DNA of 64,000 nucleotides from Candidatus Latescibacterota bacterium. Lineage in GTDB: Bacteria; Latescibacterota; UBA2968. This document shows positions 26,546-53,325 of the stretch, in pieces; within the stretch, counting starts at the first letter, position 1; every line of letters begins with the position of its first letter. Under the pieces are notes generated by a model that searched no databases, was not told where the DNA came from, and worked only from the letters and a program-made list of their open reading frames with translations. A program made the translations under genes and the position numbers. The stretch lies in NCBI GenBank assembly GCA_965208125.1, contig OZ242320.1, positions 3,840,001-3,904,000 on the forward strand, read 5' to 3'.

Positions 26546-28309
26546 ATGAATGCGATTTATCCTGAAACCGAATACAACTTCGTAATAGGCAAAAGTCCGC
26601 AAATGCGGGAAGTCTATCGCCAGATGCAAACGGCTGCCAAAGGGGCGGGAAGCGTGCTGATTGCAGGAGAAAGCGGCACAGGAAAAGACCTGGTCGCTCA
26701 GTACATCCACCACAAAAGCGGTCGCGCCCCAAATCCCTTTGTGCCCGTGAATTGCGGCGCTATTCCCAAAGAACTCTTTGAAAGCGAACTGTTCGGACAC
26801 AAAAAAGGTTCTTTTACCGGCGCCGTAAACGAAACCGCTGGCCTTTTCAGATCTGCTGATACAGGGACCATATTTCTGGATGAGATTACCGAAATTCCAC
26901 TCGAAACCCAGGTCAAACTTTTGCGCGTTCTTCAAGAGAAGCGCATTCGCCCCCTCGGAAGCACGGAAGAAATTCCCCTGGATGTCCAGGTCATTGCAGC
27001 CACCAACCGCGACCTGGAGCAGGTGCTCTGGAACAGAAGCTTCCGGGAAGATCTCTATTACCGGCTCGGGGCAGTCACCATCTATATCCCGCCCCTGCGG
27101 GAACATTTAGAAGACATCCCGGAACTGGTCGCCGCTTTCATCCAAAAGCTCAACCGGCGCCTTAAACGCAACATCCTGGGCGTTCACCCAGATATAATGC
27201 AAAACCTCACCAAATATTCCTGGCCCGGCAATGTACGTCAGCTTGAAAACGTCATTGAGAATGCATATTTGTTTACCAAAGGGAAGTGGATTACCAGGTT
27301 GGGGGTGAAACTCGAAGAGGATACCCAATCTCTTGTGAGATCCACAGGAGAAATTAGCACATCCCTGGATCCGAGCGAATTCTACTTGCCGTCCAAAGCG
27401 ATGTCAACCTCCTTGAGACGGAAAATTCAAAGTGCAGCAAAAAGTCCGGCAGGCGTGTTGATCCTGGGAGAAGAAGGGACCGGTTGCCATATGATTGGAC
27501 GGGAAATTCACCGTCAGAGCACCTATGCCAAGGGTCCCTTTGTCATCGTCAACTGCGATACGATTCCACCCGAACTTTTTGAAAAAGAGCTGTTCGGGAA
27601 TTCCATTTTTGAAGATACGCAAGAACATTTTGAAGGATATATGCACCAGGCCGAAAGCGGCACGCTCTTTCTCTACGAAGTCACGACCATACCGTACCGG
27701 ATTCAGGTGCTGCTGTGTCGCTTGTTCGAAGCAGACAGGATGCGTCCGACCGGGTTTTCCAGGGACCTTCCGAAAAATCTTCGCGTTATTGCCTATACGT
27801 CGCAAGATCTGCATCAGGCTTTGAAAGAGAAAAGTCTATCCGTTGGGTTATATACCCGATTGAGTGGGTTTGTCATTCACATTCCGACTTTGCGGGAACA
27901 AAAAGAGAAAATTCCAGAATTCGCAGATTATTTTGTCAAATTATTCGCCACTCAGCAACAACGTCCGGCTCCCCAAATTCACGACAAAGCACTGGCATCT
28001 CTGATGGCCTATTCCTGGCCGGGCAATCTACTGGAACTGCGCTTTGTTATCCAGGGTGCTCTTACTGCGGCGAACTTTGGCACAATTCAAAAACACCACC
28101 TGCCAGACCAACTGGGCATACACTGGCAGACGGATGGACACACAGACACACGGGGCAAACTCTACGATGTAGAGCAGGATTTACTTCAAGAAGCACTTCA
28201 AAAAGCCGATGGAAACAAAACCCAGGCCGCTCGACTTCTCGGTATCTCCCGGAAAAAGGTTTACAAAATGTTGGAAAGTTCACCCCTTCATCATGAATCC
28301 GGATTTTAA
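26546..28309 (+). CDS. Sigma54-dependent activator with tandem AAA+ domains and Fis-type HTH, no N-terminal sensor
   Basis: Domain 1 has [34 protein letters not shown] and WPGNVRQL; domain 2 is a degenerate copy; C-terminal [14 protein letters not shown]. Confidence 0.9.
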
Positions 28310-28317
28310 TCCTTCAG

Positions 28318-28353
28318 TGTTTCCTTTCGAAACAACTGTATCCTGAGGGAACG
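28318..28353. promoter_or_regulatory. Candidate tandem upstream activator sequences
   Basis: TGTTTC-N5-GAAACA (28318-28334, perfect palindrome) and TGTATC-N5-GGAACG (28337-28353), about 135-170 nt upstream of the -24 box. Confidence 0.5.
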
Positions 28354-28486
28354 TACCAGATGCTTCTCGCCAAACTGGAATTCCCGGGCCCTGCAGGAAC
28401 TCTCCATTCAATTTCATTCACATAAATATATATAAAATAATAGTCTAATTGTGCCAGACAATCTGATTTCCATTTTTTTCGTTGTC

Positions 28487-28502
28487 TGGCATGTTTTTTG
28501 CT
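28487..28502 (+). promoter_or_regulatory. Sigma54 (-24/-12) promoter
   Basis: TGGCATGTTTTTTGCT with exact GG-N10-GC spacing, directly downstream of a sigma54 activator gene. Confidence 0.8.
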
Positions 28503-28623
28503 TATAGGTTAAATAAGATAAAATAATTTTTTGATGAATTGATTCAGCCACCTTAAAATTACACTTAATCCCTGCCAAATCTACTGCCTCAATTTCTGTC
28601 CCGATTATCGCGAGGAATATACG

Positions 28624-29025
28624 TTGAACAGGCGCATTTTGATTGTCTCCGAAGATTCCCGGCTGGCCTGGGACGTGAAAAATCTTCTGTCTGGCGAACC
28701 TGTGGAACAGACTGAAGTGCGTTCCGGGCAGGCATGTCTGGATATGATTGTGAGTACTCCTGTGGAAATTGTCGTGATAGACGACCGTCTCCAGGATATG
28801 CAGGCAGTGGATCTAATCAGACATATCAAATCCACAGTGCCAGATATAATCGTCATCCTGGGTGCCTATAAACATTCTATCCAGGATGAAATAGAGGCCA
28901 GGCGAGCTGGGGCCTCCTACTGTATCATCGGTCCCGGCGAATACGATACCCTCTACCAGTTTTTGCTACAGGCCATTGCGTTAGAAAACAGACACCTTTT
29001 GAGTAAAAATAAAAAAAGGAGGTGA
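28624..29025 (+). CDS. Stand-alone atypical receiver-domain protein
   Basis: CheY-like pattern RILIVSED...VVIDD...ARRAGA; lacks conserved Thr/Ser and Lys; GAGGA RBS with TTG start. Confidence 0.7.
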   Translation: MNRRILIVSEDSRLAWDVKNLLSGEPVEQTEVRSGQACLDMIVSTPVEIVVIDDRLQDMQAVDLIRHIKSTVPDIIVILGAYKHSIQDEIEARRAGASYCIIGPGEYDTLYQFLLQAIALENRHLLSKNKKRR

Positions 29026-29104
29026 TATCGCGTTTAACACAGCTACAATAGTCACGATAGATGTGGATTCATCCTGATTACACCAAATCCGAGAGGAGGC
29101 GTTT

Positions 29105-29815
29105 ATGATTCGATTTCGAAGTATTTTGTTTGGCGGAGTTCTCGTGCTGATCCTGGGAGGAATCTCATTCGCCCAGGAATTTACTCCCCGAGTGGGCATC
29201 GCGGGGAATATTAGCGTGAACCTGCCTGTACTGGGACTCCGAACCTGGTTTACACAGGCCCCGCAATTCGGGGTCAATATTGTGTATCATCGCCATGCGC
29301 GGATAGAAGTGGAGTACGAATATCACTACGCCCGGTTTGACGGTGGGAGTCTGGAGGATGCCGAGTTTATGTGGGCACCAACCGGTACCACAGATCTTCA
29401 GTCTTACAAAAGCCCCAACGCGCAATCCAGGATGCGTTTTCACAGCTTTCTGGTCAACGGCGTCTTCTTTTTTGGCAAGCAACTCAATGACCAAAAGGCT
29501 CGGCCTTATTTCACATTCGGGAGCGGTATGTATCACTATCGTACTACTGAAACAGGGCTGATCTTTCCAGGACAAACGGGTAACTCGTTGAACACCAGCA
29601 TTGTTCTGGAATCCGACGGGGATGTCCGAACAACTGTCGGTATCAATTTTGGTCTGGGCGTTGCTTTCTATACATCCGATCGATTCGCCCTTGATTTGCG
29701 TGGTCGATACCACATTATCATAGGTCAGTTACGCCCCATGGAGGCGTGGGGATTGAAGCAGGTTTTTCCCTTCCATGCGCTGGATCTGGGCATTCGCGTG
29801 AAGACCTACTTTTAG
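29105..29815 (+). CDS. Outer-membrane beta-barrel protein (small, OmpA/OMP_b-brl-like)
   Basis: Signal peptide, RPYFTFGSG, GINFGLGV, alternating beta pattern, C-terminal Phe. Confidence 0.75.
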   Translation: MIRFRSILFGGVLVLILGGISFAQEFTPRVGIAGNISVNLPVLGLRTWFTQAPQFGVNIVYHRHARIEVEYEYHYARFDGGSLEDAEFMWAPTGTTDLQSYKSPNAQSRMRFHSFLVNGVFFFGKQLNDQKARPYFTFGSGMYHYRTTETGLIFPGQTGNSLNTSIVLESDGDVRTTVGINFGLGVAFYTSDRFALDLRGRYHIIIGQLRPMEAWGLKQVFPFHALDLGIRVKTYF

Positions 29816-29827
29816 GGGGAACACAAT

Positions 29828-32800
29828 ATGCGAGAATCAAAACAAATTCTCCTGTGGTGCATGGCGCTGAGTCTGGTTCTGTTCGGTGCTGACTTGACAT
29901 TCGCCGCCACTACGGGAAAGATTTCTGGTACTGTCAGAGACGCCCAGGGGCAACCGCTTCCCGGAGCCAATGTGGTCGTCAAGGGGATGCGTTTGGGGGC
30001 TACCACAGACGCCGATGGAATTTATTTTATTCTTACCGTACCACCTGGGGTGCACACATTGACTGCCTCTCTGGTGGGCTATGGAACGATCTCTCAAACC
30101 GATGTAAAAGTCGCCGTTGACCTGACTACGACGGTCGATTTCGCGCTGGAGGAAATAGCTCTACAGGCCACAGAATTGGTTGTGATTGCCGAGCGTCCAC
30201 CTGTGGAACCGGATAAAACCACCAGCAAATACATCCTGGGATCAGAGGAAATTGAGTCGCTTCCCATCATCAGGAGCGTTTCTGGACTCCTCGCTTTACA
30301 GCCCGGCGTTTTGCCGGAGGGAAACGACATGATTCGCGGAACTGGTGCCGCGGATGTGACCTATTACATAGATGGAATCCCCATTGTGACCACCGATGGC
30401 GTGGGTGCATTTGACCGTTTCCAGTTTCAAAACACATCGGCTGTCCAGGAACTCACCGTATTGACCGGAGGATGGGAGGCAGAATATGGCAATGCCCAGG
30501 CCGGTATCATCAATCTGGTCACGCGGGAGGCAGGGGAAAACTATTCTGGACGATTGGAGTACAAGTTTGATCCTTCGGGCAAAAAACACTGGGGTAACGA
30601 CGTTTACGACGCTCCTCAGTTTAGAGATAACTTGAAGTGGGGAGATGCCGCCTGGGAAAATGAGACAGATCCCGAAACGGGACAAACTATTCACCAGCGG
30701 ATCGATTATGCCGATGCAGCAGGCCATTTCATAGAGGCGAATCTATCTGGACCACTTACGCCTGACGCCGGGCTATTCGTCAGCACGCGCTTTGATCGGT
30801 CCGCCCGTTCGTTTCCTTCCTCTTCCTCGCACACTCCGGGAAATACCCGCAATACAGTCAAGCTAAATTACAATATGTCAGACAATGTAAAGTTCAAGCT
30901 CGGGGGATTCTACCATTGGAGCAAAGGGTGGAACAACGGCACCAGTTTGGGTAGAAGCGCTACGGCCGGTGCTATCCGGGGTCTGGGAGACGGTGGGAGA
31001 AATGTCTTTCTACCGGAAGGAAGTTCTGCGGGACGGTTCACGGATAGTGAGAGTTTGATCTACGCCTCTTTGACCCACACTTTGAGTCCAAAGACATTCT
31101 ATGAAGCCAAAATATCGCGCTCTTTTTCCAGGCAAGATACCAGCGATATTCCCGCAGCGACTCAGCCCCTGCGCAGGGATGCGGCCGGGTACTTCAACCT
31201 GTCGCGCGACGTGCGTGCCTACGAAATTTCAGCGCGCGCGCGTTACAACGTCAAGTTCGATATTTCCAGCCAGATCACGAGGGGACATCTGGTCAAGACC
31301 GGGGCTGACTTCACCTATTCCGACGCCTGGGCATTTGGCGAGATTGGAGAAAACGAGTCCCGTCGCGTCGTTGCCTTTTACGCAAAAGATGGGGCTCCAG
31401 ATGGAAACTTTCAGCGGGGAATCAACCCTTTTCAGTGGGGACTCTATTTGCAAGATAAGATGGAATTCAGCGGCATGATCGTCAATGCAGGCGTTCGCCT
31501 GGATGGATTCCACAATGGAGAAAAAGGCTCCGCAGTTCCACCTTTTGAAACATCACCTATGTACAACAAACTCCGACATTTTCGAAACGCACCACGGGCA
31601 GACGCCGATGCCAAAATCGCGTTCAGCCCTCGATTGGGTGTTTCACATCCCATCACCGCTGCAAGCACCATCCGGTTTTTCTATGGGAGATTTTACAAAT
31701 TTCCGAATCTCTGGACGATGAACCGGCAGGTCTGGGTGGGGAGCTTTCCCGACATCGACATCAACGGCAACGGACAGATTGATCCCGAGGAGCGGTTCAA
31801 TGATCTCGGAAAGGAAAACCAGATCGGCGTTGGAAACATAGCCACACCGCCGGAGAAAACCACCAGTTTTGAGGTGGGAACCGACTGGAACGTGGTTTCG
31901 GACTATACTTTATCGCTAACCGCCTACTACAAAACGGTAGATAATCAGTTATCTACTGGTACAACGGGCGGCGAGACGACGATCTGGCAGGATCCCGGCA
32001 CGGGAAGAACCGAGCAGATCCGTGTCAACCTGAGTATCAGATATGAGGATATCAAGGGAATTGAGCTTGGTTTCCAGAAGCGATTCAGCAATAACTTCGC
32101 GTTTCAGACGTCTTTTAACGCGCAGTGGCTATCGGGAGGGCGTGCAGGGGGAGCAGGGGACAGGTTCTTCCCGGATTCAACGTGGGTCGCCGCTGGAAAT
32201 TACTGGTTTGGCTATGAGATTCGAAACGGGCAGGAGGTTCCGATTCCACTGACCCAGGATGAGATCCGAGAAATCGGATCCAAAGCGAATCAACTTCTTC
32301 GCGACATCCAGGCAGGTGGTGGTCCCAGCAAGGGACAGGCAGGACCGAATGAACATTTTCTGGCAGCTATTGAAAAGGAACCCGGCATCTGGGCTATCAC
32401 CCCCATTCTTTCCGAGTTGAATATTGGCGGCATACGGGGCAGGGACAGAACGGCATTTGGGAGCGTGGCGTTTCTCTACCGAACGCCGAGCGATTGGGGC
32501 CCAATGGTTGGCGAAGCGGGTTTGTTCGGGAATATTCAGGCCAACATGATTTATCGCATGCAGACCGGCAGCCGGTTTGAATACTCGCTTCCAGAAGGTG
32601 GCGTGGAGGAACGAAATGAGCCACTTCGCACCTGGGTTGATTTGAATGCCCAAAAGACGTTCTACGGCCTGAGGGACCGCTTCGATGCCACGTTGTTCGT
32701 CGAAACATACAATCTGTTCAACCAGAAAGATCGGCGGGCAAACAACTTCGATTATATTCAATGGGGTTTGAGAAGACCCATACCAACAGACCAGCTCTAC

Positions 32801-32881
32801 AGGAATTTCGGAGATCCGAACGACAGGGCCTTTCTGGGCTCCCCAAGGCAGGTGCATTTGGGATTGAGACTCAGTTTCTAA
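29828..32881 (+). CDS. TonB-dependent receptor with N-terminal carboxypeptidase-regulatory-like domain
   Basis: Signal peptide, TTGKISGTV..PLPGANV, plug (YYIDGIP, GGWEAEYGNAQAGIINLVT), FSPRLGVSHP, YNLFN, ends PRQVHLGLRLSF. Confidence 0.9.
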   Translation: MRESKQILLWCMALSLVLFGADLTFAATTGKISGTVRDAQGQPLPGANVVVKGMRLGATTDADGIYFILTVPPGVHTLTASLVGYGTISQTDVKVAVDLTTTVDFALEEIALQATELVVIAERPPVEPDKTTSKYILGSEEIESLPIIRSVSGLLALQPGVLPEGNDMIRGTGAADVTYYIDGIPIVTTDGVGAFDRFQFQNTSAVQELTVLTGGWEAEYGNAQAGIINLVTREAGENYSGRLEYKFDPSGKKHWGNDVYDAPQFRDNLKWGDAAWENETDPETGQTIHQRIDYADAAGHFIEANLSGPLTPDAGLFVSTRFDRSARSFPSSSSHTPGNTRNTVKLNYNMSDNVKFKLGGFYHWSKGWNNGTSLGRSATAGAIRGLGDGGRNVFLPEGSSAGRFTDSESLIYASLTHTLSPKTFYEAKISRSFSRQDTSDIPAATQPLRRDAAGYFNLSRDVRAYEISARARYNVKFDISSQITRGHLVKTGADFTYSDAWAFGEIGENESRRVVAFYAKDGAPDGNFQRGINPFQWGLYLQDKMEFSGMIVNAGVRLDGFHNGEKGSAVPPFETSPMYNKLRHFRNAPRADADAKIAFSPRLGVSHPITAASTIRFFYGRFYKFPNLWTMNRQVWVGSFPDIDINGNGQIDPEERFNDLGKENQIGVGNIATPPEKTTSFEVGTDWNVVSDYTLSLTAYYKTVDNQLSTGTTGGETTIWQDPGTGRTEQIRVNLSIRYEDIKGIELGFQKRFSNNFAFQTSFNAQWLSGGRAGGAGDRFFPDSTWVAAGNYWFGYEIRNGQEVPIPLTQDEIREIGSKANQLLRDIQAGGGPSKGQAGPNEHFLAAIEKEPGIWAITPILSELNIGGIRGRDRTAFGSVAFLYRTPSDWGPMVGEAGLFGNIQANMIYRMQTGSRFEYSLPEGGVEERNEPLRTWVDLNAQKTFYGLRDRFDATLFVETYNLFNQKDRRANNFDYIQWGLRRPIPTDQLYRNFGDPNDRAFLGSPRQVHLGLRLSF

Positions 32882-32895
32882 GAGGATAAGACAAC

Positions 32896-35169: not shown

Positions 35170-36159
35170 ATGATGACCAGGATATACGCATCAATCTGCG
35201 TATTCGCGATTGTGATTTTGCTGCAATCGCCCGCCCAGGGACAGGGATATGTGGAAATCGAGGATGAGGATATTTATTCCTCAACCGCTGCTTCGCGAAT
35301 TGGGCTTACAGGATTTGCATTTCTGAAGATTTCCCAGGGGGCGCGGTCTGCGGGAATGGGGGATGCGTACACGGCCATATCCAATGATATCAATGCGGCA
35401 TTCAAGAATCCTGCCGGTTTGACCCATATGAAACGGATTGAGTACGTGTTCTCTTACAACCGATGGTTGGTAAACAGCACGGTTGCTTCCAGCGCTGTTG
35501 CGGCGAATACGCCTTATGGCGTGGTGGGCGTTACTTTTATCGGTTTCTACCCTGAGAAGAGCAAGGAAACCACCATACTCCAGCCGCTCGGAACAGGAGA
35601 GATGGTGAATGCTGGGGATGTCGCCATCGGATTTCTTTACGCGAAGAAAATGACCGATAGGCTCTCCTTCGGCGCTCACGGTCGCTGGATTCAGGAAACG
35701 CTGCACGACAAGAAAATTTCCAGTTACGATGTCTCACTCGGCACGCTGTTCTACACGGGATTTGGCTCCAGCAGGTTGGCGATGACATTACAAAATTTCG
35801 GCAAAGACGTAACGCCGGAAGCGGTCACTTTCGCCATGCCAATGGTTTTCAATATCGCCGCTGCTATGGAGGTTTACGGAACAGTAGAAGATCCCACCTA
35901 CCTCACAGCCGCAGTCGATTTCAGCTATGCCACTGATTTCGGTGAGCGGTTACATTTTGGCGGTGAGCTCTGGGTCGCAAGGGTGCTCGCGCTTCGAGCT
36001 GGATACAAGACCAATTACGACATCGAGAGTTATTCACTTGGTGCCGGTGTTCGCGTGAACTATGTGGGAGGTAGGCAGGTCTCTGTCGATTTTGCCTATT
36101 CGGCGATTGAGGGTGGCTTTGATCCTCCGCTGCGCGTATCTCTGAGTGGGAGTTTTTAG
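35170..36159 (+). CDS. PorV/PorQ-like (UPF0164) outer-membrane barrel
   Basis: FLKISQGARSAGMGDAYTAISNDINAAFKNPAGL signature, LALRAGY, C-terminal Phe. Confidence 0.85.
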   Translation: MMTRIYASICVFAIVILLQSPAQGQGYVEIEDEDIYSSTAASRIGLTGFAFLKISQGARSAGMGDAYTAISNDINAAFKNPAGLTHMKRIEYVFSYNRWLVNSTVASSAVAANTPYGVVGVTFIGFYPEKSKETTILQPLGTGEMVNAGDVAIGFLYAKKMTDRLSFGAHGRWIQETLHDKKISSYDVSLGTLFYTGFGSSRLAMTLQNFGKDVTPEAVTFAMPMVFNIAAAMEVYGTVEDPTYLTAAVDFSYATDFGERLHFGGELWVARVLALRAGYKTNYDIESYSLGAGVRVNYVGGRQVSVDFAYSAIEGGFDPPLRVSLSGSF

Positions 36160-44565: not shown

Positions 44566-44594
44566 TTCGCTCTGTGCGGCCTATGGAGAAAATC

Positions 44595-46091
44595 ATGGAT
44601 AGAGTGATCATTGCAGAGTGCAAGCAAGAAGTCTCGACGTTTAATCCCGTGCCCAGCCAGTACGACGATTTTCGAATCGTACGTGGGCCTGATATGCTCG
44701 ATTTCCATCGCGGCGTCGGTCACGAAGTCGGCGGTGCTCTGAGCGTTTTGGACCGAGAAGAGGCGCTTCTCCTCGTGCCCACATACGGAGCGTGTGCGAA
44801 TACGTCTGGAGGTGTGCTTTCAAAAGGCGGATTTGACCGCCTGAGCGATGAGTTTCTCGAAAGTATCCGGGATGTCGGTGAGGTGGATGGAGCTTATTTC
44901 TCGCTTCACGGTGCCATGCAGGCCGAGAGCGAAAATGATCCCGAAGGCTACTTGCTACAGGAAGCCCGCCGCATTCTCGGTGACCAGATTCCGATTGTGG
45001 TATCCCTGGACCTGCACGGTATCCTCACTGATCGGATGCTCGAGCACTGTGATGCCGTCGTTACGTACCACACCTATCCGCATATTGACTTTGTTGAAAC
45101 AGGAAAGCGCGCGGCCTTTCTGTTGATCAAGATGCTGGATGGAAACATCCGTCCTGTGACTGCAAGAGTCAAGATCCCGGCGCTGGTGCGTGGCGATGAA
45201 ATGATTACTGAGACCGGGGCGATTCGAGAATGTATTCAACTGGCGAAGCAGATCGAAGCCAGCGAAGCGGGTCTTTCTGCGGGCGTGATGTGGGGAAACC
45301 CGTTCACCGATGTTCCGGAGCTTCGAACAAATAGTATCGTTGTCATGGATGGCGATGAAGTTGCCGCCATCCAATACGCGGTAGATCTGGCAAACCGGTT
45401 CTGGAAGCATCACGAAAAGATGCAGGTGCCTCTGACGGGTCTCGAAGAAAGCGTCCGGCTCGCTGCAGAAGTCGATTCTGGAACCGTCGTCATGATGGAT
45501 GCAGCCGACGCGACCAGTTCTGGCGCATCGGGTGATAGCAATGCCATTGTGCGAGAACTGATGTGTCAGAGATATTCCGGGATGGTCCTTGCACCGGTCG
45601 TGGATCCCGCTGCCGTCCAGAAAGCTTTCGACGCGGGCATAGGCGCCACCATCCGCACTACCGTAGGCGGCGTGTTCGACAGGGCCAGGTACGAACCACT
45701 AAAGATAGAGGCCAGGGTTCACCTGCTTTCAGATGGCGTTTTTCGCAGCGAGACCTTCGGCTGGCACTGGAATTCGGGAAATACCGCCGTTCTCAAGGTG
45801 GATAATTATACTCTTGTGGTCGGTACAAGGCCAGTCAGCCTGTTTGACCGATCGTGGTTTTACGCTCATGGGCAGGATCCGAAGAAATTCGACCTGGTTG
45901 TCGTAAAGTCGCCTCATTGCGAGCCCCACATGTTCGCCGACTGGTGCGCGAAGTTGATTAATGTTGACGCTCCCGGGGCGACAAGCGCGAACTTGCAGAG
46001 CCTTGGACATACGATTTGTAATCGACCGGTCTTTCCGCTGGATGATGTCATGGCATTTTCTCCGAAAGCGGATGTATTCCGTCGGAATTGA
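44595..46091 (+). CDS. M81 (MlrC) family metallopeptidase
   Basis: QEVSTF, LHGAM, DPEG, LDLHG, YPHID and VVKS motifs; GGAG RBS before ATG 44595. Confidence 0.88.
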   Translation: MDRVIIAECKQEVSTFNPVPSQYDDFRIVRGPDMLDFHRGVGHEVGGALSVLDREEALLLVPTYGACANTSGGVLSKGGFDRLSDEFLESIRDVGEVDGAYFSLHGAMQAESENDPEGYLLQEARRILGDQIPIVVSLDLHGILTDRMLEHCDAVVTYHTYPHIDFVETGKRAAFLLIKMLDGNIRPVTARVKIPALVRGDEMITETGAIRECIQLAKQIEASEAGLSAGVMWGNPFTDVPELRTNSIVVMDGDEVAAIQYAVDLANRFWKHHEKMQVPLTGLEESVRLAAEVDSGTVVMMDAADATSSGASGDSNAIVRELMCQRYSGMVLAPVVDPAAVQKAFDAGIGATIRTTVGGVFDRARYEPLKIEARVHLLSDGVFRSETFGWHWNSGNTAVLKVDNYTLVVGTRPVSLFDRSWFYAHGQDPKKFDLVVVKSPHCEPHMFADWCAKLINVDAPGATSANLQSLGHTICNRPVFPLDDVMAFSPKADVFRRN

Positions 46092-46174: not shown

Positions 46175-47905
46175 ATGCCACACGCCAACCAGATTGATCC
46201 CATCCGATTTGAGGTCATCCGCAATGCGCTGTCCGAAGCCACGGAAGAAATGGCGATTGCCCTGCGCCGCAGTGCCTACTCCACCAATATTAAAACCCGA
46301 GCCGACTTCTCCTGTGTCCTTTTTGACAGCCGGGTTCGGGTCGTCGCTCAGGCTTTCGCGCAGCCCGTCCATCTCGGCTCCCTGTCCTTACTTGTACCCA
46401 GGATGGTGGAAGCATACGGGGCTGAAAATCTGGGTCCCGGTGACGCTATCCTGGCCAACGATCCCTACCTGGGTGGCGTACACCTGAATGACATCACCCT
46501 CATTTCACCAGTATATTACAACAACACTTGCCTGGGGTATGTTGCCAACCTGGCTCACCATGTAGATGTAGGTGGAGGGGCCCCCGCGAGCATTGGTGCT
46601 TTCAGGGAAGTGTTTCAGGAGGGCGTCATCATTCCGCCAGTCAAGCTCGTTGAGCGGGGCGAACTCGTCCCCAATATCTTCGATCTCATCCTCGCGCAAA
46701 TTCGTTCGAAACGCGAAATGGCAGGCGATCTGCGTGCCCAAATCGCAGCCAATAACACAGGCGTTCGCCGTTTATGTGCCCTCGCCGATCGCATAGGTGG
46801 CGACACGGTGTCGTTCTACATTCGCGAATTGATTGCCTACACGGAACGGCGCACGCGCGTGGAAATTAGAAATTTGCCGAATGGCGATTTTTCGGCCGAT
46901 GGGCAGGTGGATAACGACGGTTTTACGGACCGGCCAGTACACCTTGCCGCGCGAATCAGCATTCAGGATGATCAGATATGCTTTGATTTTACCGGCTCTG
47001 ACGTTCAGCGTAGCGCACCGGTGAATTCAACCGTAGCGATGACTTTTTCCGCCTGTGCCTATGTTCTCAAGTGCCTCATTGACCCGGATGTGCCAGTTAA
47101 TGCGGGTTTCTATAATACGGTTCAAATGGTTGCGCCAGAGGGAACGGTTGTCAACTGTTCTCCCCACGCACCGGTTGTCGGAGGCTGGGAGACCCAATTA
47201 CGGCTAACAGATGTCATATTGAGGGCCCTGGCTCCCGCATTTCCCGATCACATTCCAGCAGGTAGTAAAGCCATGGTATGTCATGCGGGATTCGGCGGAA
47301 TTATCGCCAGCACAGGCGAGTATTACTGCTTTTTGGAAACCCTGGCCGGTGGCTATGGTGGTCGTGCCGCGAGCGATGGGCCGGACGCCGTTCAGACTCA
47401 TGGGCAGAACACCGAAAACGCACCCATTGAGGAGACAGAAATCAACTACCCGGTACGCATCGCGCGCTACGAACTGGTTGAGAACTCCGAAGGCCCTGGT
47501 AAATTTCGGGGCGGATTGGGCCTCCGGCGTGACTACCTCTTCCCCGATCATGAAGCCTCCTTCACCATCCTCGCTGATCGCGACAGGAAGGGCCCCGGGG
47601 GCCTTTTCGGCGGCAAACCTGGCCGCACGGCCAGTTATTTTCTCAATTCGAATGGAAAAACCGTCCGACTTGGTTCGAAAACTACCGTCCAGCTTCAACC
47701 GGGAGATATTGTCAGCTATCGCACCTGCGGTGGCGGCGGCTACGGTCTGCCCGCGGATCGGGATCCCGAACGCGTGTTGCGCGACGTGCGAAACGGTATG
47801 GTCAGCCGGGAGCGAGCAAGGGAGATCTACCGAACGGAGATCGATACGGAGGCCTGGCGTGTGAACGATGGAGAAACGATGAGGTTGCGGAGCGAGATTA
47901 CCTGA
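46175..47905 (+). CDS. Hydantoinase B/oxoprolinase beta subunit
   Basis: DPIRFEV, DFS, NDPY.GG.HLND, HHVDVGG, EG and GGGGYG motifs. Confidence 0.92.
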   Translation: MPHANQIDPIRFEVIRNALSEATEEMAIALRRSAYSTNIKTRADFSCVLFDSRVRVVAQAFAQPVHLGSLSLLVPRMVEAYGAENLGPGDAILANDPYLGGVHLNDITLISPVYYNNTCLGYVANLAHHVDVGGGAPASIGAFREVFQEGVIIPPVKLVERGELVPNIFDLILAQIRSKREMAGDLRAQIAANNTGVRRLCALADRIGGDTVSFYIRELIAYTERRTRVEIRNLPNGDFSADGQVDNDGFTDRPVHLAARISIQDDQICFDFTGSDVQRSAPVNSTVAMTFSACAYVLKCLIDPDVPVNAGFYNTVQMVAPEGTVVNCSPHAPVVGGWETQLRLTDVILRALAPAFPDHIPAGSKAMVCHAGFGGIIASTGEYYCFLETLAGGYGGRAASDGPDAVQTHGQNTENAPIEETEINYPVRIARYELVENSEGPGKFRGGLGLRRDYLFPDHEASFTILADRDRKGPGGLFGGKPGRTASYFLNSNGKTVRLGSKTTVQLQPGDIVSYRTCGGGGYGLPADRDPERVLRDVRNGMVSRERAREIYRTEIDTEAWRVNDGETMRLRSEIT

Positions 47906-47935: not shown

Positions 47936-50023
47936 ATGGCGTACCGGCTGGGCATTGACACTGGTGGAACATTCACAGATGCAACGCTCATCGATGAAGA
48001 AACTGGAGACATCCGCGTCGGCAAGGTGTCGTCCACACCGGGGGACCCTTCTCTCGGATTTATGGAAGCCACCCGTCGAATTCTGGGCGAATCAGAAATT
48101 GAACCGAATGAAGTGGGCTATATCGTACACGGAACCACAGTGGTCACCAATGCAATTATCGAAGGCAAAACCGCTCGGACGGGTTTTATCACCACCGGTG
48201 GCTTCCGCGATCTGCTTGAAATCGCGCGCCAGATCCGTCCGTCGCTTTACGACCTGCAGTTTGAAAAGCCCCGGCCGCTGGTACCGCGCTACCTCTGCTT
48301 CGGTGTGCCGGAGCGTCTGGATGCAAGGGGAAAAATTCTCGAACCTCTCGATGAAAAGGCCGTTTCCGCCGCGGCGAGCCAACTGCGCCGGGAGGCTGTG
48401 GAATCGATCGCGGTCTGCCTGCTTCACGCCTACACCAATCCCACCCACGAGCAGCGAGTCGAAGAGATCCTGAGGAGGGACTTTCCCGAAGCGATGGTGT
48501 CGCTGTCTTCGGAAGTATCACCGGAATTCAGGGAGTATTTTCGGGCCAGCACCACCGTCATCAACGCCTGTATCCGGCCTATTGCTGCGCGCTATTTGGA
48601 AAATATCCAGACTCGGTTGCGAGAAGAAGGGTTAACGGCGCAACTTTTGGTGATGCAAAGCAGTGGGGGAGTTCTGACCTTTGGAGCGGCAGCTAAAAAA
48701 CCAGTTTTTCTCGTCGAATCAGGTCCCGCAGCCGGGGTGATCGCAGCTACCTATCTGGGCGATACACTGGGCCATCCCAATGTGATCTCTTTTGACATGG
48801 GCGGAACAACGGCCAAAGCGGGCCTCGTACAGGATGGGCGGCCTCAGGTGACCATGGATTACGAGGTCGGGGCTACTGCTCAGGCGGGTGCTGGTGGGGC
48901 AAGAGGCGGGGGATATCCCATCCGCACGCCTGTCATTGATCTGGTGGAAATTGGCGCTGGTGGGGGGTCAATCGCCTGGGTAGATCCGGGTGGTGTGTTG
49001 CGGGTGGGACCACATAGCGCGGGAGCCGATCCCGGCCCGGTGTGCTACGGAAAGGGCGGCGAAGATCCCACGATCACCGATGCCAACCTGGTGCTGGGGC
49101 GCCTCAACCCGGATTATTTTTTGGGCGGTGAGATCGCACTGGACGCGGAAGCCGCTCGAATGGCGATTCAGCAGAAATGCGCTGACCCGCTGGGATTGGA
49201 TTCCGTAGAAGCCGCCTACGGGATTGTGGAAATCGCCAACGCGGCCATGGTCAACGCCCTCCGGCTGGTTTCTGTTCAGCGGGGATACGATCCGAGAGAA
49301 TTCGTGTTGGTGGCCTTCGGCGGGGCAGGCCCGGTACATGCCTGCCGCCTGATGGCAGAAATGGAGATTCCGACTATCCTGATTCCGATGAGTCCGGGAA
49401 CCACTTCGGCGATGGGTCTGCTCGTGACAGATCTCAAGCACGACTATTCGACAACATTTATATGTCAGGTAGATAAGCTGGATCTCAAAAAGGTGGCGAC
49501 GGCATTCCGCAATATGGAACAACAGGGGAGAGCGATACTGGAGGAAGAAGGGGTGCAGGACAAGGACAAGGACTTCCTGCGCCAGGTAGATATGCGCTAT
49601 GTAGGCCAGAGCTATGAATTGACCGTGCCGCTTTCCGAAACTGAATTCACACCAGCCGGGATTGAAGCCCTGCTGATCTACTTTCATCGGGAACACGACC
49701 GGGCCTACGGATACAGCGCTCCTGAAGAACCTGCGGAATTTGTCAATCTCCGTCTTTCAGCAATCGGCCGAATCGCAAAACCCCGACTCCGTAGCCTTGA
49801 TTCAAATTCAGACGCTCCGGCTCTCAAAACCAGCCGCCCCGTTTACTTTGCCGAGCGCAATGGATTTGTGGATTGTCCGATTTACGACCGCTATACCCTC
49901 GCCGCGGGGAATATTTTGGATGGCCCTGCGATCATTGAAGAAATAGATTCCACGAGCGTTATCCACCCCGGGTACCGGGGAACCGTAGATACGTACGGGA
50001 ACCTGATTTTGACCCGGGAATGA
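47936..50023 (+). CDS. Hydantoinase A/oxoprolinase ATP-binding subunit
   Basis: GIDTGGTFTD, HGTT, SGPAAG, DMGGTT, GAGGGSIA and FGGAGP motifs. Confidence 0.93.
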   Translation: MAYRLGIDTGGTFTDATLIDEETGDIRVGKVSSTPGDPSLGFMEATRRILGESEIEPNEVGYIVHGTTVVTNAIIEGKTARTGFITTGGFRDLLEIARQIRPSLYDLQFEKPRPLVPRYLCFGVPERLDARGKILEPLDEKAVSAAASQLRREAVESIAVCLLHAYTNPTHEQRVEEILRRDFPEAMVSLSSEVSPEFREYFRASTTVINACIRPIAARYLENIQTRLREEGLTAQLLVMQSSGGVLTFGAAAKKPVFLVESGPAAGVIAATYLGDTLGHPNVISFDMGGTTAKAGLVQDGRPQVTMDYEVGATAQAGAGGARGGGYPIRTPVIDLVEIGAGGGSIAWVDPGGVLRVGPHSAGADPGPVCYGKGGEDPTITDANLVLGRLNPDYFLGGEIALDAEAARMAIQQKCADPLGLDSVEAAYGIVEIANAAMVNALRLVSVQRGYDPREFVLVAFGGAGPVHACRLMAEMEIPTILIPMSPGTTSAMGLLVTDLKHDYSTTFICQVDKLDLKKVATAFRNMEQQGRAILEEEGVQDKDKDFLRQVDMRYVGQSYELTVPLSETEFTPAGIEALLIYFHREHDRAYGYSAPEEPAEFVNLRLSAIGRIAKPRLRSLDSNSDAPALKTSRPVYFAERNGFVDCPIYDRYTLAAGNILDGPAIIEEIDSTSVIHPGYRGTVDTYGNLILTRE

Positions 50024-50074: not shown

Positions 50075-52003
50075 ATGGCAGAGGAGCAAAGGATGCCTCA
50101 TAGTGAAGCTGAATACGGAATCGTCCTGTCGAAAAACGTCATGGTCTCCATGCGGGACGGTACTCGTCTGGCCACAGATATTTACCGTCCAGCACGCGAT
50201 GGAGACCCACTGCCGGGGCCCTTTCCCACAATTCTGTGTCGCACCCCGTATGACAAATCCGATGCACGCTATGAGGAAATAGGAGACTTCTTTACGCCAC
50301 ATGGGTATGTGACCGTGCTCCAGGACCTGCGAGGCCGACACCGTTCCGAAGGTTTGGGTCAGTACTTCCACGTTGCCAACATCAATGACGGCCTGGACGG
50401 CTATGACACGGTAGAATGGATCGCTGCCCAGCCCTGGTCAAACAAACGCGTGGGGGCTGTTGGCAGTTCTTTCGCGGCTCTGGTGCAGACACGAATGGCG
50501 TTTCACCGTCCGCCGCATCTCACCGCCATCTGGCCAGACGTAACACCCATCAACAGCTATCACCACCAGGCTCGGGAAGGCGGGGCTATGCAGATGCACA
50601 TGTTCTGGGCGCTTTACCTCCATGCTCAGGACGCACAGGAAATCCAGAATGACCCTGAAGCGCAGGACGCTGTCTGGAACGATCTCCGTGGGATTCGCGA
50701 GCTTCTCGTTTCAATGCCGTTTCAGCCCGGTCAAACTGCTCTATCCGCAGTTCCCAATCTCGAAAAAACGCTTTTTGACTACTATCATCGGGGAGAATAC
50801 GATAGTTTCTGGGAGCGGGAATACAACGATTTCGAGCGGAATTTCGAACGCCACGCAGACATTCCTGGCACCTATTCAAGCGGCTGGTACGACCCGTACG
50901 CGGTAGCCGTCACGGGCTATTTTGCCGCAATGGCCAAACAAAACTTTTCGCCGCAGCGACTGGTGATGGGCCCCTGGAATCACGTGGGGATGAGAGGGGA
51001 TTCTTCTTTCACGGGAGATGTAGATTTTGGATCTGACAGTGTTTGGGGTGTAAGCAGCTACTTCGAAGAACAACGCCGGTTTTTTGCCGCATGGCTAAGA
51101 GGCAAGTCTTCGGGAAAGGAAGACGACCCACCTGTGAGTATATTTGTGATGGGCGGAGGAACAGGTCGCAAAACAGACGAGGGAAAATACCATCACGGAG
51201 GAAGATGGCGTCGTGAGTGGGAGTGGCCGTTGGCCCGTACCCATACCCTCCAGTACCACTTTCATTCGCAAGGCCTGCTGAGTACAGATGAGCCGGATGA
51301 AGAAAGCTCTCCCTTGTCCTTCACCTACGACCCCGCCAATCCGATACCCACGATTGGAGGCAGTCTGTGCGGTATCATGGAACTTCCGAAGGATGATGGA
51401 GACCTGGACCAGATGTGGAGCCGATTTCTCTCGCCGGTCACGCGACTGCGCAACATCGTCATTCCCGGGCCGGCCCATCAAAAGGAATCTGCCGACGTAT
51501 TTGGCGCGAATCCCCCTTACCAGCTTTTGGCGGATCGACCGGATGTGCTGGTCTTTCAGACATCTCCTCTGGAGGAGGATCTGGAAGTAACCGGATCCGC
51601 CATCGTCACATTGTGGATTTCTTCCTCGGCTCCCGATACCGATTTCACCGCGAAGCTCATTGACCTTGCGCCAGCCAACGATGACTATCCGGACGGATAT
51701 GCAATGAACCTCGTGGATTCCGTGATTCGCACGCGGTATCGAAATAGCTGGGAACAGGAAGAACTCATGGAACCCGGTGAAGTCTATCGGGTTCAGATTC
51801 CTCTGCCCCCAACCAGTAATTTGTTTCAGGCCGGGCATCGGATTCGGATCGATATATCCAGCAGCAATTTCCCCCGCCTGGACCTGAATCCCAATACGGG
51901 CGAGCCGATGGGAAGGCATACACACACGGTACCCGCACGCAACAAGGTATATATGGACAAGCAGCGCCCATCGGGCGTGCTTCTGCCGACGATCCCCGTC
52001 TGA
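50075..52003 (+). CDS. CocE/NonD family serine hydrolase
   Basis: MRDGTRLATDIYRP, RTPY, GSSFAA nucleophile elbow, GWYD, GPWNH and SSNFPR motifs. Confidence 0.92.
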   Translation: MAEEQRMPHSEAEYGIVLSKNVMVSMRDGTRLATDIYRPARDGDPLPGPFPTILCRTPYDKSDARYEEIGDFFTPHGYVTVLQDLRGRHRSEGLGQYFHVANINDGLDGYDTVEWIAAQPWSNKRVGAVGSSFAALVQTRMAFHRPPHLTAIWPDVTPINSYHHQAREGGAMQMHMFWALYLHAQDAQEIQNDPEAQDAVWNDLRGIRELLVSMPFQPGQTALSAVPNLEKTLFDYYHRGEYDSFWEREYNDFERNFERHADIPGTYSSGWYDPYAVAVTGYFAAMAKQNFSPQRLVMGPWNHVGMRGDSSFTGDVDFGSDSVWGVSSYFEEQRRFFAAWLRGKSSGKEDDPPVSIFVMGGGTGRKTDEGKYHHGGRWRREWEWPLARTHTLQYHFHSQGLLSTDEPDEESSPLSFTYDPANPIPTIGGSLCGIMELPKDDGDLDQMWSRFLSPVTRLRNIVIPGPAHQKESADVFGANPPYQLLADRPDVLVFQTSPLEEDLEVTGSAIVTLWISSSAPDTDFTAKLIDLAPANDDYPDGYAMNLVDSVIRTRYRNSWEQEELMEPGEVYRVQIPLPPTSNLFQAGHRIRIDISSSNFPRLDLNPNTGEPMGRHTHTVPARNKVYMDKQRPSGVLLPTIPV

Positions 52004-52023
52004 GCATTCATTGGAGAGAACAC

Positions 52024-53325
52024 ATGGAAACTCGATTGCAGGCCGGATTTGCACGAACGGATATTACCCCAGATCTGGGATGTCTGCTGCTGGGCTACCC
52101 GGCCCCAGACCGCAGAGCCGAATCCGTACGCGACCGACTCAACGCGAATGCGCTCTACCTGGAACAAAATAGCGTGAGAGCCGTCATCTTGAGCCTTGAT
52201 GTGTGCATTGTAGATGATGTCGAAGTCGAGTCTATTCGCCAGGGAATCTATGATCGAACAGGCATCCCTTCGGATCATATCACTGTCTGTGCTATCCAGA
52301 CTCACAGTGGACCCTGCACCATTGATTGCTGGGGATGGAGCGAAAAGGACAAACCGTATATCGATAGGCTCGTCGAGAGAAGCATTGAAGCCGCCGTCAC
52401 CGCTGCTCAATCACCCATACCTATAACTGTAGGCATCGGCACAACGCAGAGTGACGTGGGGGTCAACCGACGAGAGGTCCTTGAAAACCACGAAGTTGCC
52501 CTGGGTGTCAATCCCTGGGGGCCTTATGATCCCGATATGACCCTTTTGCGATTTGAAGGGAAGGATGGGCCACTTGTCTCATTGATCCACTACGGCGCGC
52601 ATCCAACCGTTTTCTCCAGTGCCAACAGGGCAGTGTCCCGCGATTGGCCAGGTGTCATGATCGACCGGGTGGAACACCTCACGGGCGTCCCGACTTTCTT
52701 TGTCAATGGTGCCGTAGGTGACATCGCTCCCCGCACCAATAGTCTCCGCGCCGTCGGAGATGGCGAAATGGCGCTCATGGAAGTCGGAGGGCGAGCGGGT
52801 ATGGATGCGATGCGTGCTTACCGGTCCATCAAGACGTTCCAAGACCTGCCGTTGTCCATCATTACCGGAGACATCATGATGCCTTACCGGTCGCTGCCGC
52901 CACTGGAAGAAGCAGAGCGGGAGTTTGCCTTGACTAAATCCGAAAAAGATGAGCCAGGGAAGGGCATGTGCGAGTACAAACACTGGGAAGCCGTTATCCA
53001 TGCCCACAAAACCGAACCGTTACCTGGCACAACTTACCGGCAGGTGATCACTGCTCTCGGGCCGATTGCATTTGTCCCTTTTCCCGGCGAGCCATTCGCA
53101 GAAATCGTTCTTCGATTGCGCCAGTACAGTCCCTTTCAATATACGCTTTGCGCCAGTACTTCGTGTGGCAGCTATGGCTATTTCGTCACGCGGGATTCGC
53201 TGCACCGCGGTGGGTACGAAGTCTGGGTGGCCAAAGCCTTCGGCGCGTACATTCTGGCTGAAAATATCGACGACGTCCTGGTCGAAGAAAATCTGGCTCT
53301 CCTGCACAATCTGCACGACCTGTAG
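52024..53325 (+). CDS. Neutral/alkaline ceramidase-like amidohydrolase, copy 2
   Basis: TDITP, IQTHSGP, NRR, HYGAHPT, DWPG, PGEPF and GGYE motifs. Confidence 0.78.
   Translation: METRLQAGFARTDITPDLGCLLLGYPAPDRRAESVRDRLNANALYLEQNSVRAVILSLDVCIVDDVEVESIRQGIYDRTGIPSDHITVCAIQTHSGPCTIDCWGWSEKDKPYIDRLVERSIEAAVTAAQSPIPITVGIGTTQSDVGVNRREVLENHEVALGVNPWGPYDPDMTLLRFEGKDGPLVSLIHYGAHPTVFSSANRAVSRDWPGVMIDRVEHLTGVPTFFVNGAVGDIAPRTNSLRAVGDGEMALMEVGGRAGMDAMRAYRSIKTFQDLPLSIITGDIMMPYRSLPPLEEAEREFALTKSEKDEPGKGMCEYKHWEAVIHAHKTEPLPGTTYRQVITALGPIAFVPFPGEPFAEIVLRLRQYSPFQYTLCASTSCGSYGYFVTRDSLHRGGYEVWVAKAFGAYILAENIDDVLVEENLALLHNLHDL

Follow-up and report, generated by a model that had tools for sequence, protein, structure and literature searches.

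A SusD-free, receptor-centred utilisation locus of Candidatus Latescibacterota with a putative T9SS-type surface protein and putative OPT-fold importers

Introduction

SusC/SusD is the textbook model for the capture of complex nutrients in the Bacteroidota group. The sister phyla of the Bacteroidota have no SusD, and to our knowledge their uptake route for such nutrients is not known; these phyla are abundant in sediments, oceans and sponges, and nearly all of them are uncultured. Here, a utilisation locus of a Candidatus Latescibacterota bacterium (assembly GCA_965208125.1) was analyzed, which contains a TonB-dependent receptor, a secreted surface protein and a PorV/PorQ-family barrel. It occupies positions 26546-53325 of the window, i.e., of the whole stretch of 64,000 nucleotides (nt) that was studied (contig OZ242320.1, positions 3,840,001-3,904,000 of the forward strand). 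All positions given below are window positions unless the genome is named. The host genome has a size of 5.75 Mb, and the crude set of open reading frames (ORFs) spans 93% of it.

Further closely related systems are the attachment pairs of type IX secretion (T9SS). In Porphyromonas, these are PorU-PorV and PorZ-PorQ, and in Flavobacterium proteins with type-B tails have PorP/SprF partners. PorZ is held on PorQ and PorU on PorV, both with the tail retained. For Latescibacteria, the relevant section of an earlier study predicted the use of porins and the TonB-dependent uptake of vitamin B12 and iron (PMC4454575), and another study mentions sulfatases only in the passages concerned (PMC7081726).

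The initial annotation of the window had proposed a sigma-54-driven and SusD-free locus for the uptake and cytoplasmic hydrolysis of amide or sulfate compounds. This interpretation was supported in part. It was right in substance, i.e., the locus is a receptor-centred utilisation locus without SusD that is built from other parts, but the phylum, the sigma-54 layer and the view as a single locus needed correction. The uptake cassette of the locus seems to represent an alternative to SusC/SusD that is widespread and undescribed. The reading that we prefer, with somewhat better than even confidence, is that the locus exemplifies a modular type of nutrient-acquisition locus found in Latescibacterota, which combines a receptor and a docked T9SS surface protein with an OPT-fold importer and cytoplasmic hydrolases. 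A wider version is put forward more tentatively and falls a little short of an even chance: across Latescibacterota and neighbouring phyla of the FCB group, SusC/SusD would be replaced by a T9SS-built capture complex of three proteins, in which a binding protein keeps its tail and is seated on a PorV/PorQ-type barrel of its own, next to a non-SusC receptor, and which feeds DUF6785/DUF6784, a large and so far unassigned branch of the OPT superfamily, as main inner-membrane importer for substrates well beyond peptides.

Results

The outer-membrane cassette is conserved and has 15 copies in the genome

The three genes of the cassette have a fixed order, i.e., the TonB-dependent receptor is followed by the secreted protein of about 750 amino acids (aa) and the PorV/PorQ-family barrel. 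Protein families were assigned with Pfam and NCBIfam models, and the cut-offs quoted are curated or gathering cut-offs. With 14 further paralogues, the surface-protein gene is present 15 times in the genome, and each copy is flanked by a receptor gene on one side and by a PorV/PorQ-family gene above cut-off on the other. Genome-wide, 18 PorV/PorQ-family genes scored above cut-off, 15 of them beside a surface-protein paralogue. A paralogue of the small outer-membrane barrel is encoded upstream of nine of the 15 cassettes. The initial annotation had presented the locus as a single case; its description was correct, but the locus turned out to be one member of a family of modular cassettes and does not stand alone.

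Related loci were collected by a scan of one genome per species, with an alignment of the seven closest surface-protein paralogues as query. The scan yielded 273 relatives of the 752-aa surface protein, and the 80 best loci were examined (numbered handles starting with L below). They are labelled Latescibacterota, KSB1, Neomarinimicrobiota, Gemmatimonadota and Cytophagia, and the loci that are 94-99% identical at the protein level are labelled Candidatus Latescibacterota, so that an origin of the window from Bacteroidota was rejected. With crude ORF calling, a receptor gene was found upstream in 76 and a barrel gene downstream in 70 of 79 loci; L049 is missing from this count, as its query gene was not recovered as an ORF. 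A tblastn search of the 12 apparent exceptions revealed that both genes are present wherever the contig reaches, resulting in 79/79 loci with receptor and 78/78 with barrel (two contigs, those of L049 and L062, break off at the query gene, and that of L086 starts there). With a profile of the surface-protein family, 241 of 1.84 billion representatives were matched at E <= 1e-30.

For 12 cassettes of the host genome, similarity matrices were compared between the three cassette proteins. The Spearman correlations were 0.81-0.88, and none of 2000 permutations gave values as high. The cassette has therefore duplicated and diverged as a unit, and block duplication alone would give the same result.

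The genes downstream of the cassettes differ. A Pfam tally of 59 downstream genes from the other 14 cassettes gave TPR, DUF1800, FG-GAP/UnbV, MacB/FtsX, ADH and others, with 79 families in total. The 25 most frequent ones included no glycoside hydrolase (GH) family, so that the label "polysaccharide" was not applied to these loci. Ten downstream genes that were viewed singly encode SSF, ADH, PhyH, AKR, GWxTD, polysaccharide deacetylase, MacB/FtsX and TPR proteins. Because of this differing cargo (sodium:solute symporter, dehydrogenases, deacetylase, MacB-type permeases, TPR proteins), the cassette appears to be a general front end whose back ends can be exchanged. In one subfamily of cassettes, a GWxTD-domain protein of about 456 aa is encoded between the PorV-type barrel and DUF6785 (L016:9945-11315, minus strand; also L031-L034, L041, L042, L056, L089 and L091).

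The cassette might also be a device for export or surface assembly (adhesin, S-layer, protein secretion), with a receptor that acts in secretion like Oar of Myxococcus. The part of the study that deals with Oar reports that this TonB-dependent transporter is needed for protease secretion (PMC6434023). The receptor of the locus has the same CarboxypepD_reg N-domain architecture, and T9SS is itself a secretion system. However, importer-type membrane proteins regularly follow the cassette (DUF6785 with its OPT fold, or a sodium:solute symporter in L023), and cytoplasmic catabolic enzymes come next. Moreover, 15 diverged copies per genome suit a diversification of substrates better than a structural role, and an export function is regarded as very unlikely.

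The surface protein is predicted to dock on the neighbouring barrel

AlphaFold2 (AF2) models were compared with solved structures by Foldseek and by VIA (48,161 chains). The model of the surface protein (pLDDT 74.8, pTM 0.79) contains a large beta domain, an FN3 domain and a C-terminal beta-sandwich. Foldseek with the whole model gave mostly FN3 matches and was uninformative for the N-domain, which was settled by VIA. According to this search, about residues 30-497 form a galactose-mutarotase-like supersandwich, with matches to a cyclic glucan synthase (8rf9_A, Z 17.1, rmsd 3.2, 245 aligned), GH94 (5nz7_A, Z 16.8, rmsd 3.9, 270 aligned), GH15 (1lf6_A, Z 16.7, rmsd 3.3, 235 aligned) and aldose-epimerase-like proteins (Z 11-12).

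This result could mean that the surface protein is a glycan- or polymer-cleaving enzyme of an unrecognised family, and that the cassette both cuts and imports. In line with this, the structural matches of the N-domain include N-terminal domains from GH94, GH15, GH116 and GH65 enzymes (Z 14.5-17), and the acidic residues D220, D221, D284, D285, D311, D321 and E192 are invariant in the closer paralogues. However, the matches are confined to the non-catalytic supersandwich, an (alpha/alpha)6 or other catalytic domain is absent, and no catalytic family of Pfam or NCBIfam was matched. A role as enzyme is thus improbable. Because the supersandwich is not followed by a catalytic domain, and a shared fold is no proof of function, the N-domain is read as a ligand-binding module.

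The tail of the surface protein has seven strands at residues 656-750 in the AF2 model. Its best matches were the tails of PorZ (23.7 bits, E 1.5e-5) and PorU, and CHU_C was matched with 18.4 bits (cut-off 27, E 2.3e-3). In a genome scan with PF18962, none of the 15 surface proteins was listed. T9SS components are encoded in the genome, i.e., SprA (506 and 130 bits in one 2094-aa frame) and a PorU-like ORF of 1909 aa. For GldM no match was found in the genome, and the control was equally silent, so that this search is uninformative.

A profile of the barrel paralogues matched PorV of F. johnsoniae (6h3i_F, E 3.2e-26). A PorP/SprF-type identity of the barrel was rejected, as no PorP_SprF Pfam match was obtained at E <= 0.01 and PorV/PorQ fits instead. 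Complex prediction for the barrel and residues 496-752 of the surface protein gave a score of 0.92 in three runs, and the best of three controls had 0.00. Of 80 solved complexes 58 attain this mark, as do 2 of 110 mismatched pairs; the counts hold only roughly because own alignments were used here. Contact agreement was at least 90% between the runs, the pLDDT of the partner was at least 82, and the interface was formed by the tail (residues 654-752). The models thus predict that the tail docks on the neighbouring PorV/PorQ-family barrel.

From anatomy, conservation and models we infer the following mechanism at the outer membrane. The non-SusC receptor would work together with a surface protein that is exported by T9SS and carries a supersandwich of the carbohydrate-binding type and an FN3 spacer. 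The surface protein would stay cell-bound via its tail, docked on the dedicated barrel encoded next to it, and it would fill the role of the SusD lipoprotein of Bacteroidota. A small beta-barrel often accompanies the trio.

The receptor is not of the SusC type and SusD is absent from the locus

The Plug domain of the receptor (PF07715, residues 131-226, 34 bits) is above the cut-off of 23.9 bits. In contrast, the SusC/RagA model TIGR04056 gave 68.5 bits with a cut-off of 368.25, and the match was limited to residues 31-248. The only solved sequence relative at E <= 0.001 is a carboxypeptidase D domain (residues 32-108), and no solved TonB-dependent transporter was found by sequence. The genome contains 12 TonB_C matches above cut-off.

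As had been stated in the initial annotation, the locus is SusD-free. The protein encoded downstream of the receptor has no SusD Pfam match, and a lipobox Cys was not seen by eye in its signal peptide. A genome-wide search with SusD_RagB gave a single, doubtful match of 31 bits (genome positions 796176-796553), which contains an in-frame TAG and is located away from the locus. It lies directly after the ORF of a TonB-dependent receptor (792296-795214), and this region of the genome (792296-796553) may be a decayed SusC/SusD pair.

The DUF6785/DUF6784 proteins are predicted to have the fold of Yellow Stripe 1

The genome encodes 44 DUF6785/DUF6784 proteins. A search of 61 Latescibacterota genomes detected DUF6785 in 47 of them; a single group at the family level had no copy (0/13). 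In the Atlas, it is also found in Armatimonadota, Gemmatimonadota and Bathyarchaeota, and in one archaeal cluster 11% of the members are also assigned to the OPT family.

The AF2 model of copy 1, based on 21 paralogues, had a pLDDT of 84.2 and a pTM of 0.87. Foldseek gave a single clear match in the PDB, i.e., barley Yellow Stripe 1 (E 2.9e-8, TM 0.59/0.64). Likewise, VIA aligned 556 of 600 residues with Yellow Stripe 1 (7wsr_A, Z 22.7, rmsd 4.2), and the next best match had a Z of 5.4. The sequence identity is 11-12%. Yellow Stripe 1 (PDB 7wsr/7wst) is a secondary transporter of the OPT superfamily. Since the fold is shared over the whole length, the DUF6785/DUF6784 proteins are probably importers of the inner membrane. 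The two copies of the locus would act as secondary transporters of the OPT/Yellow Stripe fold and carry the captured compound, or pieces of it, into the cytoplasm. DUF6785 had no match to OPT or another transporter family in Pfam and no match in NCBIfam, and its profile found nothing by sequence in the PDB. In view of the missing link at the sequence level, the family was classed by its fold as OPT-fold and is not counted among the members of PF03169.

The initial annotation had named the co-occurrence of the outer-membrane parts with DUF6785 as a check, and it was found far above chance in the host genome and in other genomes. In the host genome, 11 of 15 cassettes have a DUF6785 gene on the same strand within 12 kb downstream (0.088 expected per locus, binomial 2e-9), and in 52 of 79 fetched loci DUF6785 is found within six genes. 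A third DUF6785 gene of the window (3747-5762, plus strand) is located downstream of a DUF1800 gene (111-1499), has no outer-membrane cassette and belongs to the copies that stand apart from cassettes.

The enzyme families suggest cleavage of amide, lactam, ester and sulfate-ester bonds

The eight enzyme genes of the locus encode proteins without an N-terminal hydrophobic signal, whereas all four outer-membrane proteins have one, in agreement with the earlier proposal of a cytoplasmic hydrolysis. Both ceramidase-like proteins have weak matches to neutral ceramidase (copy 1 to 2zws_A, E 2.2e-7). For the sulfatase, the cytoplasmic choline sulfatases are by far the nearest solved family (6fny_A, E 9.6e-69), but the equivalog cut-off was missed (TIGR03417, 343.7 bits, cut-off 433.45), and the enzyme is therefore called choline-sulfatase-like only. 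The best NCBIfam models for the hydantoinase pair were those of caprolactamase CapA/CapB (NF050156/NF050157; alpha 616.9 and beta 277.9 bits), with the cut-off of 1000 unmet; judged from its sequence, the pair is an ATP-dependent enzyme of the lactamase/hydantoinase type that belongs to the hydantoinase A/B superfamily. The S15 protein is nearest to cocaine esterase (E 1.7e-70; TIGR00976 366 bits). The M81 protein matched 3iuu_A (E 6.3e-55) and microcystinase C (7ylq_A, E 3.1e-43), and no solved sequence relative was found for the DUF3604 protein.

Ceramidase-like genes are found beside cassettes in 21 of the 80 related loci, other phyla included. The proteins of the Latescibacterota loci have no signal peptide, and those of the Neomarinimicrobiota loci have hydrophobic N-termini. 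A hydantoinase pair is encoded upstream in one other locus, L063. The flanks of the locus of the window also encode enzymes of related function. Upstream these are an enolase-superfamily enzyme and an Ldh_2-family dehydrogenase, and the convergent downstream flank contains two further hydantoinase genes, genes of a beta-eliminating lyase and of an acyl-CoA-ligase-type enzyme, and the third ceramidase-like gene. The set fits a catabolic route for lactams or amide-linked compounds that are possibly sulfated.

The hydrolases would cut amide, lactam, ester and sulfate-ester bonds in the cytoplasm, as is suggested by their families and the missing signal peptides. The substrate of the locus is probably a peptide-like or N-acylated compound that is possibly sulfated. 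The initial annotation had named a non-glycan substrate of the N-acyl, lactam or sulfated type. The enzyme families fit this proposal, which is still an inference, and the fold of the surface protein is of the carbohydrate-binding type.

Two side observations concern the enzymes. The convergent run on the minus strand (53404-64000, continuing to genome position 3910992) comprises hydantoinase B and A, the beta-eliminating lyase, an AMP-binding ligase, the ceramidase-like gene and a 982-aa hydantoinase-B-like ORF; past the window end further hydantoinase-A-like and ceramidase-like ORFs follow, i.e., both kinds of paralogues pile up in this region. Furthermore, 181 ORFs of the genome match the sulfatase of the locus at E <= 1e-5 (phmmer), a very large complement for 5.75 Mb.

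Layout of the locus

The region is occupied by 16 ORFs on the plus strand, the activator gene and 15 genes behind the promoter (Table 1). The ORF list, Pfam, NCBIfam and the pattern search bore out the activator, the -24/-12 promoter and the 15 co-oriented genes of the initial annotation, and Pfam and NCBIfam confirmed every family that it had named, the T9SS tail weakly only. Start codons were adjusted by eye from the translations before the gap lengths were measured. The gaps within the run of 15 genes are 12-100 nt long, and the gap ahead of the run has 314 nt. As proposed, the genes are closely spaced without an obvious terminator: the gaps contain no terminator-like site, and the numbers of such sites (18 versus 21.6 and 10 versus 16.1 in shuffled sequences) revealed no excess. 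A further strict sigma-54 motif or a strong site of the sigma-70 type is likewise absent from the gaps. A terminator after the last gene was considered and rejected, since the fold of 53310-53420 was no better than that of shuffles (z 0.23). The following gene is convergent and ends at 53404. A search for RNA families in 26000-54000 gave none at the gathering threshold.

Table 1. Features of the utilisation locus in window positions.
Feature	Position	Strand	Evidence
Sigma-54 activator (bacterial enhancer-binding protein, bEBP), sensor-less	26546..28309	+	Sigma54_activat 353 bits in 2 stretches, AAA_lid_14, HTH_8
Perfect 10-nt inverted repeat TGCCAGACAA / TTGTCTGGCA	28452..28491 (arms 28452-28461 / 28482-28491)		20 nt between arms
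Sigma-54 promoter TGGCATGTTTTTTGCT, TGGCAT-N5-TTGCT	28487..28502	+	-24/-12 pattern
Stand-alone receiver, 133 aa, first gene behind promoter	28624..29025	+	Response_reg 37.6 bits, cut-off 30.2
Small outer-membrane beta-barrel with signal peptide	29105..29815	+	OMP_b-brl E 1.3e-5; hydrophobic N-terminus
TonB-dependent receptor, not SusC type	29828..32881	+	N-terminal CarboxypepD_reg 72.9 bits, Plug (PF07715) 34 bits
Secreted surface protein, 752 aa	32896..35154	+	signal peptide, ~460-aa supersandwich, FN3, T9SS-like tail
PorV/PorQ-family outer-membrane barrel	35170..36159	+	NF033709 145.1 bits, cut-off 90
DUF6785+DUF6784 polytopic membrane protein, copy 1	36260..38248	+	Pfam 353.6 and 80.3 bits, above gathering cut-off
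Neutral-ceramidase-like amidohydrolase, copy 1	38261..39610	+	Ceramidase_alk 36.7 bits
Cys-type sulfatase, choline-sulfatase-like	39625..41097	+	Sulfatase 166 bits
DUF6785+DUF6784 membrane protein, copy 2	41169..43115	+	348.4 and 78.4 bits, above cut-off; 70% identical to copy 1
DUF3604 / CehA-McbA-family metallohydrolase	43135..44565	+	DUF3604 58 bits; NF038032 93.2 bits, cut-off 80
M81 metallopeptidase, MlrC-like	44583..46091	+	DUF1485/M81 266 bits, MlrC_C 143 bits
Hydantoinase B subunit	46175..47905	+	Hydantoinase_B 581 bits
Hydantoinase A subunit	47936..50023	+	Hydantoinase_A 344 bits
S15 CocE/NonD-family serine hydrolase	50075..52003	+	Peptidase_S15 166 bits, PepX_C 142 bits
Neutral-ceramidase-like amidohydrolase, copy 2, last gene	52024..53325	+	Ceramidase_alk 41.1 bits

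Sigma-54 control is real, local and accessory

A loose sigma-54 pattern was not enriched in the window (82 matches found, 70.7 expected), and a strict count over the whole genome was used instead. The strict pattern TGGCA[CT]N5TTGC[AT] has 53 matches in the genome. Of these, 36 lie between genes and are followed by a co-directional gene at a distance of less than 400 nt, and the promoter of the locus is among these 36. The right arm of the inverted repeat overlaps the -24 box, and judged from its sequence the repeat is a candidate site for the activator or another regulator. The genome contains one rpoN gene and 23 paralogues of the activator.

The activator consists of an intact N-terminal AAA+ domain, a second, degenerate AAA+ copy and HTH_8. 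The two halves are 42% identical (E 2e-56), and in the alignment the Walker A Lys and the GAFTGA-type loop are missing from the second half. The listing of the 120 best clusters drawn from 5.8 billion proteins included only 13 with the full-length architecture. The activator thus represents an internal tandem duplication of the AAA+ module. The best NCBIfam matches of the receiver protein are the receiver parts of NtrC-type regulators. It had been called a pseudo-receiver before, which holds in part: by eye the conserved Thr and Lys positions do look replaced, but the acceptor Asp is retained. In this copy of the locus, the 15 genes would be expressed from the sigma-54 promoter, served by the adjacent sensor-less activator with its duplicated, half-degenerate AAA+ module, and the receiver would be the first gene of the operon.

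The comparison with four near-identical orthologous loci is informative about the role of this control. In L026 and L030, which keep the promoter, the -24 and -12 boxes and also the inverted repeat are conserved, and the spacer varies. In L025 and L040 (89-93% DNA identity) the block with activator, promoter and receiver (26566-29065) is missing, as is the block with the Ldh_2 gene (25080-26328); among these close relatives, the regulatory block behaves as an indel. Furthermore, the strict motif precedes only this one of the 15 cassettes of the host genome. Sigma-54 control is thus real yet local and accessory, and, contrary to the initial annotation, it is not among the layers by which this type of locus is defined. 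Its view that the locus is built from different parts at each layer holds for the outer membrane, the inner membrane and the enzymes, but regulation is not part of the type.

Compared with the window, L026 (92-97% DNA identity) carries three insertions, each with a length of about 0.9-1.2 kb. The first lies in the receptor gene at 31920-31928, has flanks that overlap by 9 bp and contains a 374-aa ORF. The two others are located between activator and promoter (28423-28431) and in the activator gene (26843-26857). They look like insertion sequences that broke this copy of the locus. Elsewhere in the genome, strict sigma-54 motifs often precede ORFs of about 790-830 aa (e.g., at genome positions 2513886, 2545928, 2912757, 3776598, 2055494, 2085839 and 2094547). 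One such ORF, L017:426-2861, encodes a permease with MacB_PCD and FtsX, and the sigma-54 regulon of the host may be centred on a large family of MacB-like permeases.

Contigs from RNA libraries join the genes of the cassette

Eighteen runs that are on record as RNA contain 13-32% of the sampled words of 28300-38250. RNA contigs were aligned from four of them, which belong to two studies and are labelled sponge and coral metagenome. The other 14 runs had small shares (0.13-0.20), and no habitat claim rests on them. Contigs with 95-99% identity cover the region from the receiver gene to DUF6785 copy 1. They bridge the junctions of small barrel and receptor, of receptor and surface protein, and of surface protein and PorV-type barrel. 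The junction of PorV-type barrel and DUF6785 was bridged in all four runs, with a deletion of 67-77 nt at 36163-36239. The same deletion is present in L026 and L030 and is a strain-level indel.

Little or no cover was found in the four runs at 28167-28833, 38172-38838 and 44842-47499, and at the low depth the contigs allow no inference on promoter use or on expression of the enzyme genes. The initial annotation had suggested metatranscriptomes as a check of co-expression. The contigs do join the genes from the small barrel through DUF6785 copy 1, but a single transcript over the locus is not established by them.

Do the modules belong together?

Several results weigh against the preferred reading of one modular nutrient-acquisition locus. 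At the outer membrane, no Pfam barrel model matched the barrel of the receptor at E <= 0.01. The tails of the 14 paralogues matched PorZ (4/14), Por_Secre_tail (3/14), PorU (1/14) and CHU_C (2/14), and none reached a curated cut-off. A profile of the tail alone gave no match in the PDB at E <= 1. Because solved complexes of PorV with cargo exist, the passing score of the predicted complex may reflect this likeness. At the inner membrane, the OPT model PF03169 matched none of the 21 DUF6785 paralogues at E <= 1 and nothing in the genome, while the control was positive in two genomes. The contigs from RNA libraries are short of proof for one transcript, and carry-over of DNA is possible.

The remaining points are best discussed together with an explanation by juxtaposition. 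The outer-membrane cassette might serve a glycan-like ligand, each DUF6785 gene might head its own catabolic sub-cluster for small molecules, and these units might merely be co-oriented neighbours. In line with this, 29 of the 44 DUF6785 genes are found at a distance from all cassettes, and no DUF6785 gene is near four of the 15 cassettes, so that the two modules can be separated. Both DUF6785 copies of the locus precede enzyme genes, and L025 and L040 have an insert of about 1.6 kb between DUF6785 copy 2 and the DUF3604 gene. In addition, the sugar-binding-type fold of the surface protein sits oddly with cytoplasmic enzymes that cleave amide and sulfate-ester bonds. On the other hand, the short gaps without terminator-like sites or further promoter motifs, the linkage of cassette and DUF6785 far above chance, the ceramidase-like genes beside cassettes of other phyla and the contigs across the barrel-DUF6785 junction in each of the four runs all argue against independent neighbours. 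A mere juxtaposition is thus considered unlikely, and the modular acquisition locus remains the preferred reading.

Discussion

If the preferred reading is true, it would provide a testable uptake mechanism for phyla that lack SusD and are mostly uncultured, and the role of type IX secretion would widen from secretion and gliding to receptor assembly. The assignment to the OPT fold gives a hypothesis for the function of DUF6785/DUF6784, which has tens of copies per genome. The enzyme set points to the breakdown of compounds with amide, lactam and sulfate-ester bonds. In agreement with the novelty suggested in the initial annotation, searches of the open literature gave no description of the cassette, of DUF6785 or of an OPT-linked utilisation locus; one may exist in subscription journals or supplementary files.

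The regulation resembles that of sigma-54-dependent catabolic operons with activators of the NtrC family, i.e., the AAA+ sigma-54 interaction domain, HTH_8, a -24/-12 promoter and rpoN in the genome are shared. In contrast to these operons, the activator of the locus is sensor-less and has an extra degenerate AAA+ copy, the candidate repeat overlaps the -24 box and is not located about 100 nt upstream, and a separate receiver is encoded behind the promoter. At the inner membrane, DUF6785 shares the whole-length fold of the OPT superfamily (PF03169, Yellow Stripe 1), but it has no sequence match to it, is expanded to 44 copies and is placed in catabolic loci.

Receptor loci without SusD have also been described for Proteobacteria, e.g., the CUT loci of Xanthomonas (PMC1790865). 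As far as the relevant part of that study goes, they too combine receptor, inner-membrane transporter, enzymes and regulator in one locus, but a T9SS-tailed partner, a PorV-family barrel and an OPT-fold transporter are not known from them. The T9SS attachment pairs share with the locus a tailed T9SS protein with a dedicated PorV-family barrel. Unlike these pairs, the tailed protein and barrel of the locus are embedded in a nutrient-uptake cassette beside a TonB-dependent receptor, they are multiplied 15-fold, and the tail is under every curated cut-off.

The closest parallel is to the polysaccharide utilisation loci with SusC/SusD (RagA/RagB). In both cases a receptor gene is followed by a gene for a surface protein that presumably captures the ligand, many diverged paralogous copies are found per genome, and transporters, catabolic enzymes and a regulator are co-localised. 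In contrast to SusC/SusD, however, the locus has no SusD and its receptor fails the SusC/RagA model. The partner of the receptor is not a lipoprotein and has a T9SS-type tail and a mutarotase-like supersandwich. Finally, a PorV/PorQ barrel is present as third obligatory gene, the enzymes are cytoplasmic, the inner-membrane transporter is of the OPT fold, and the phylum is Latescibacterota.

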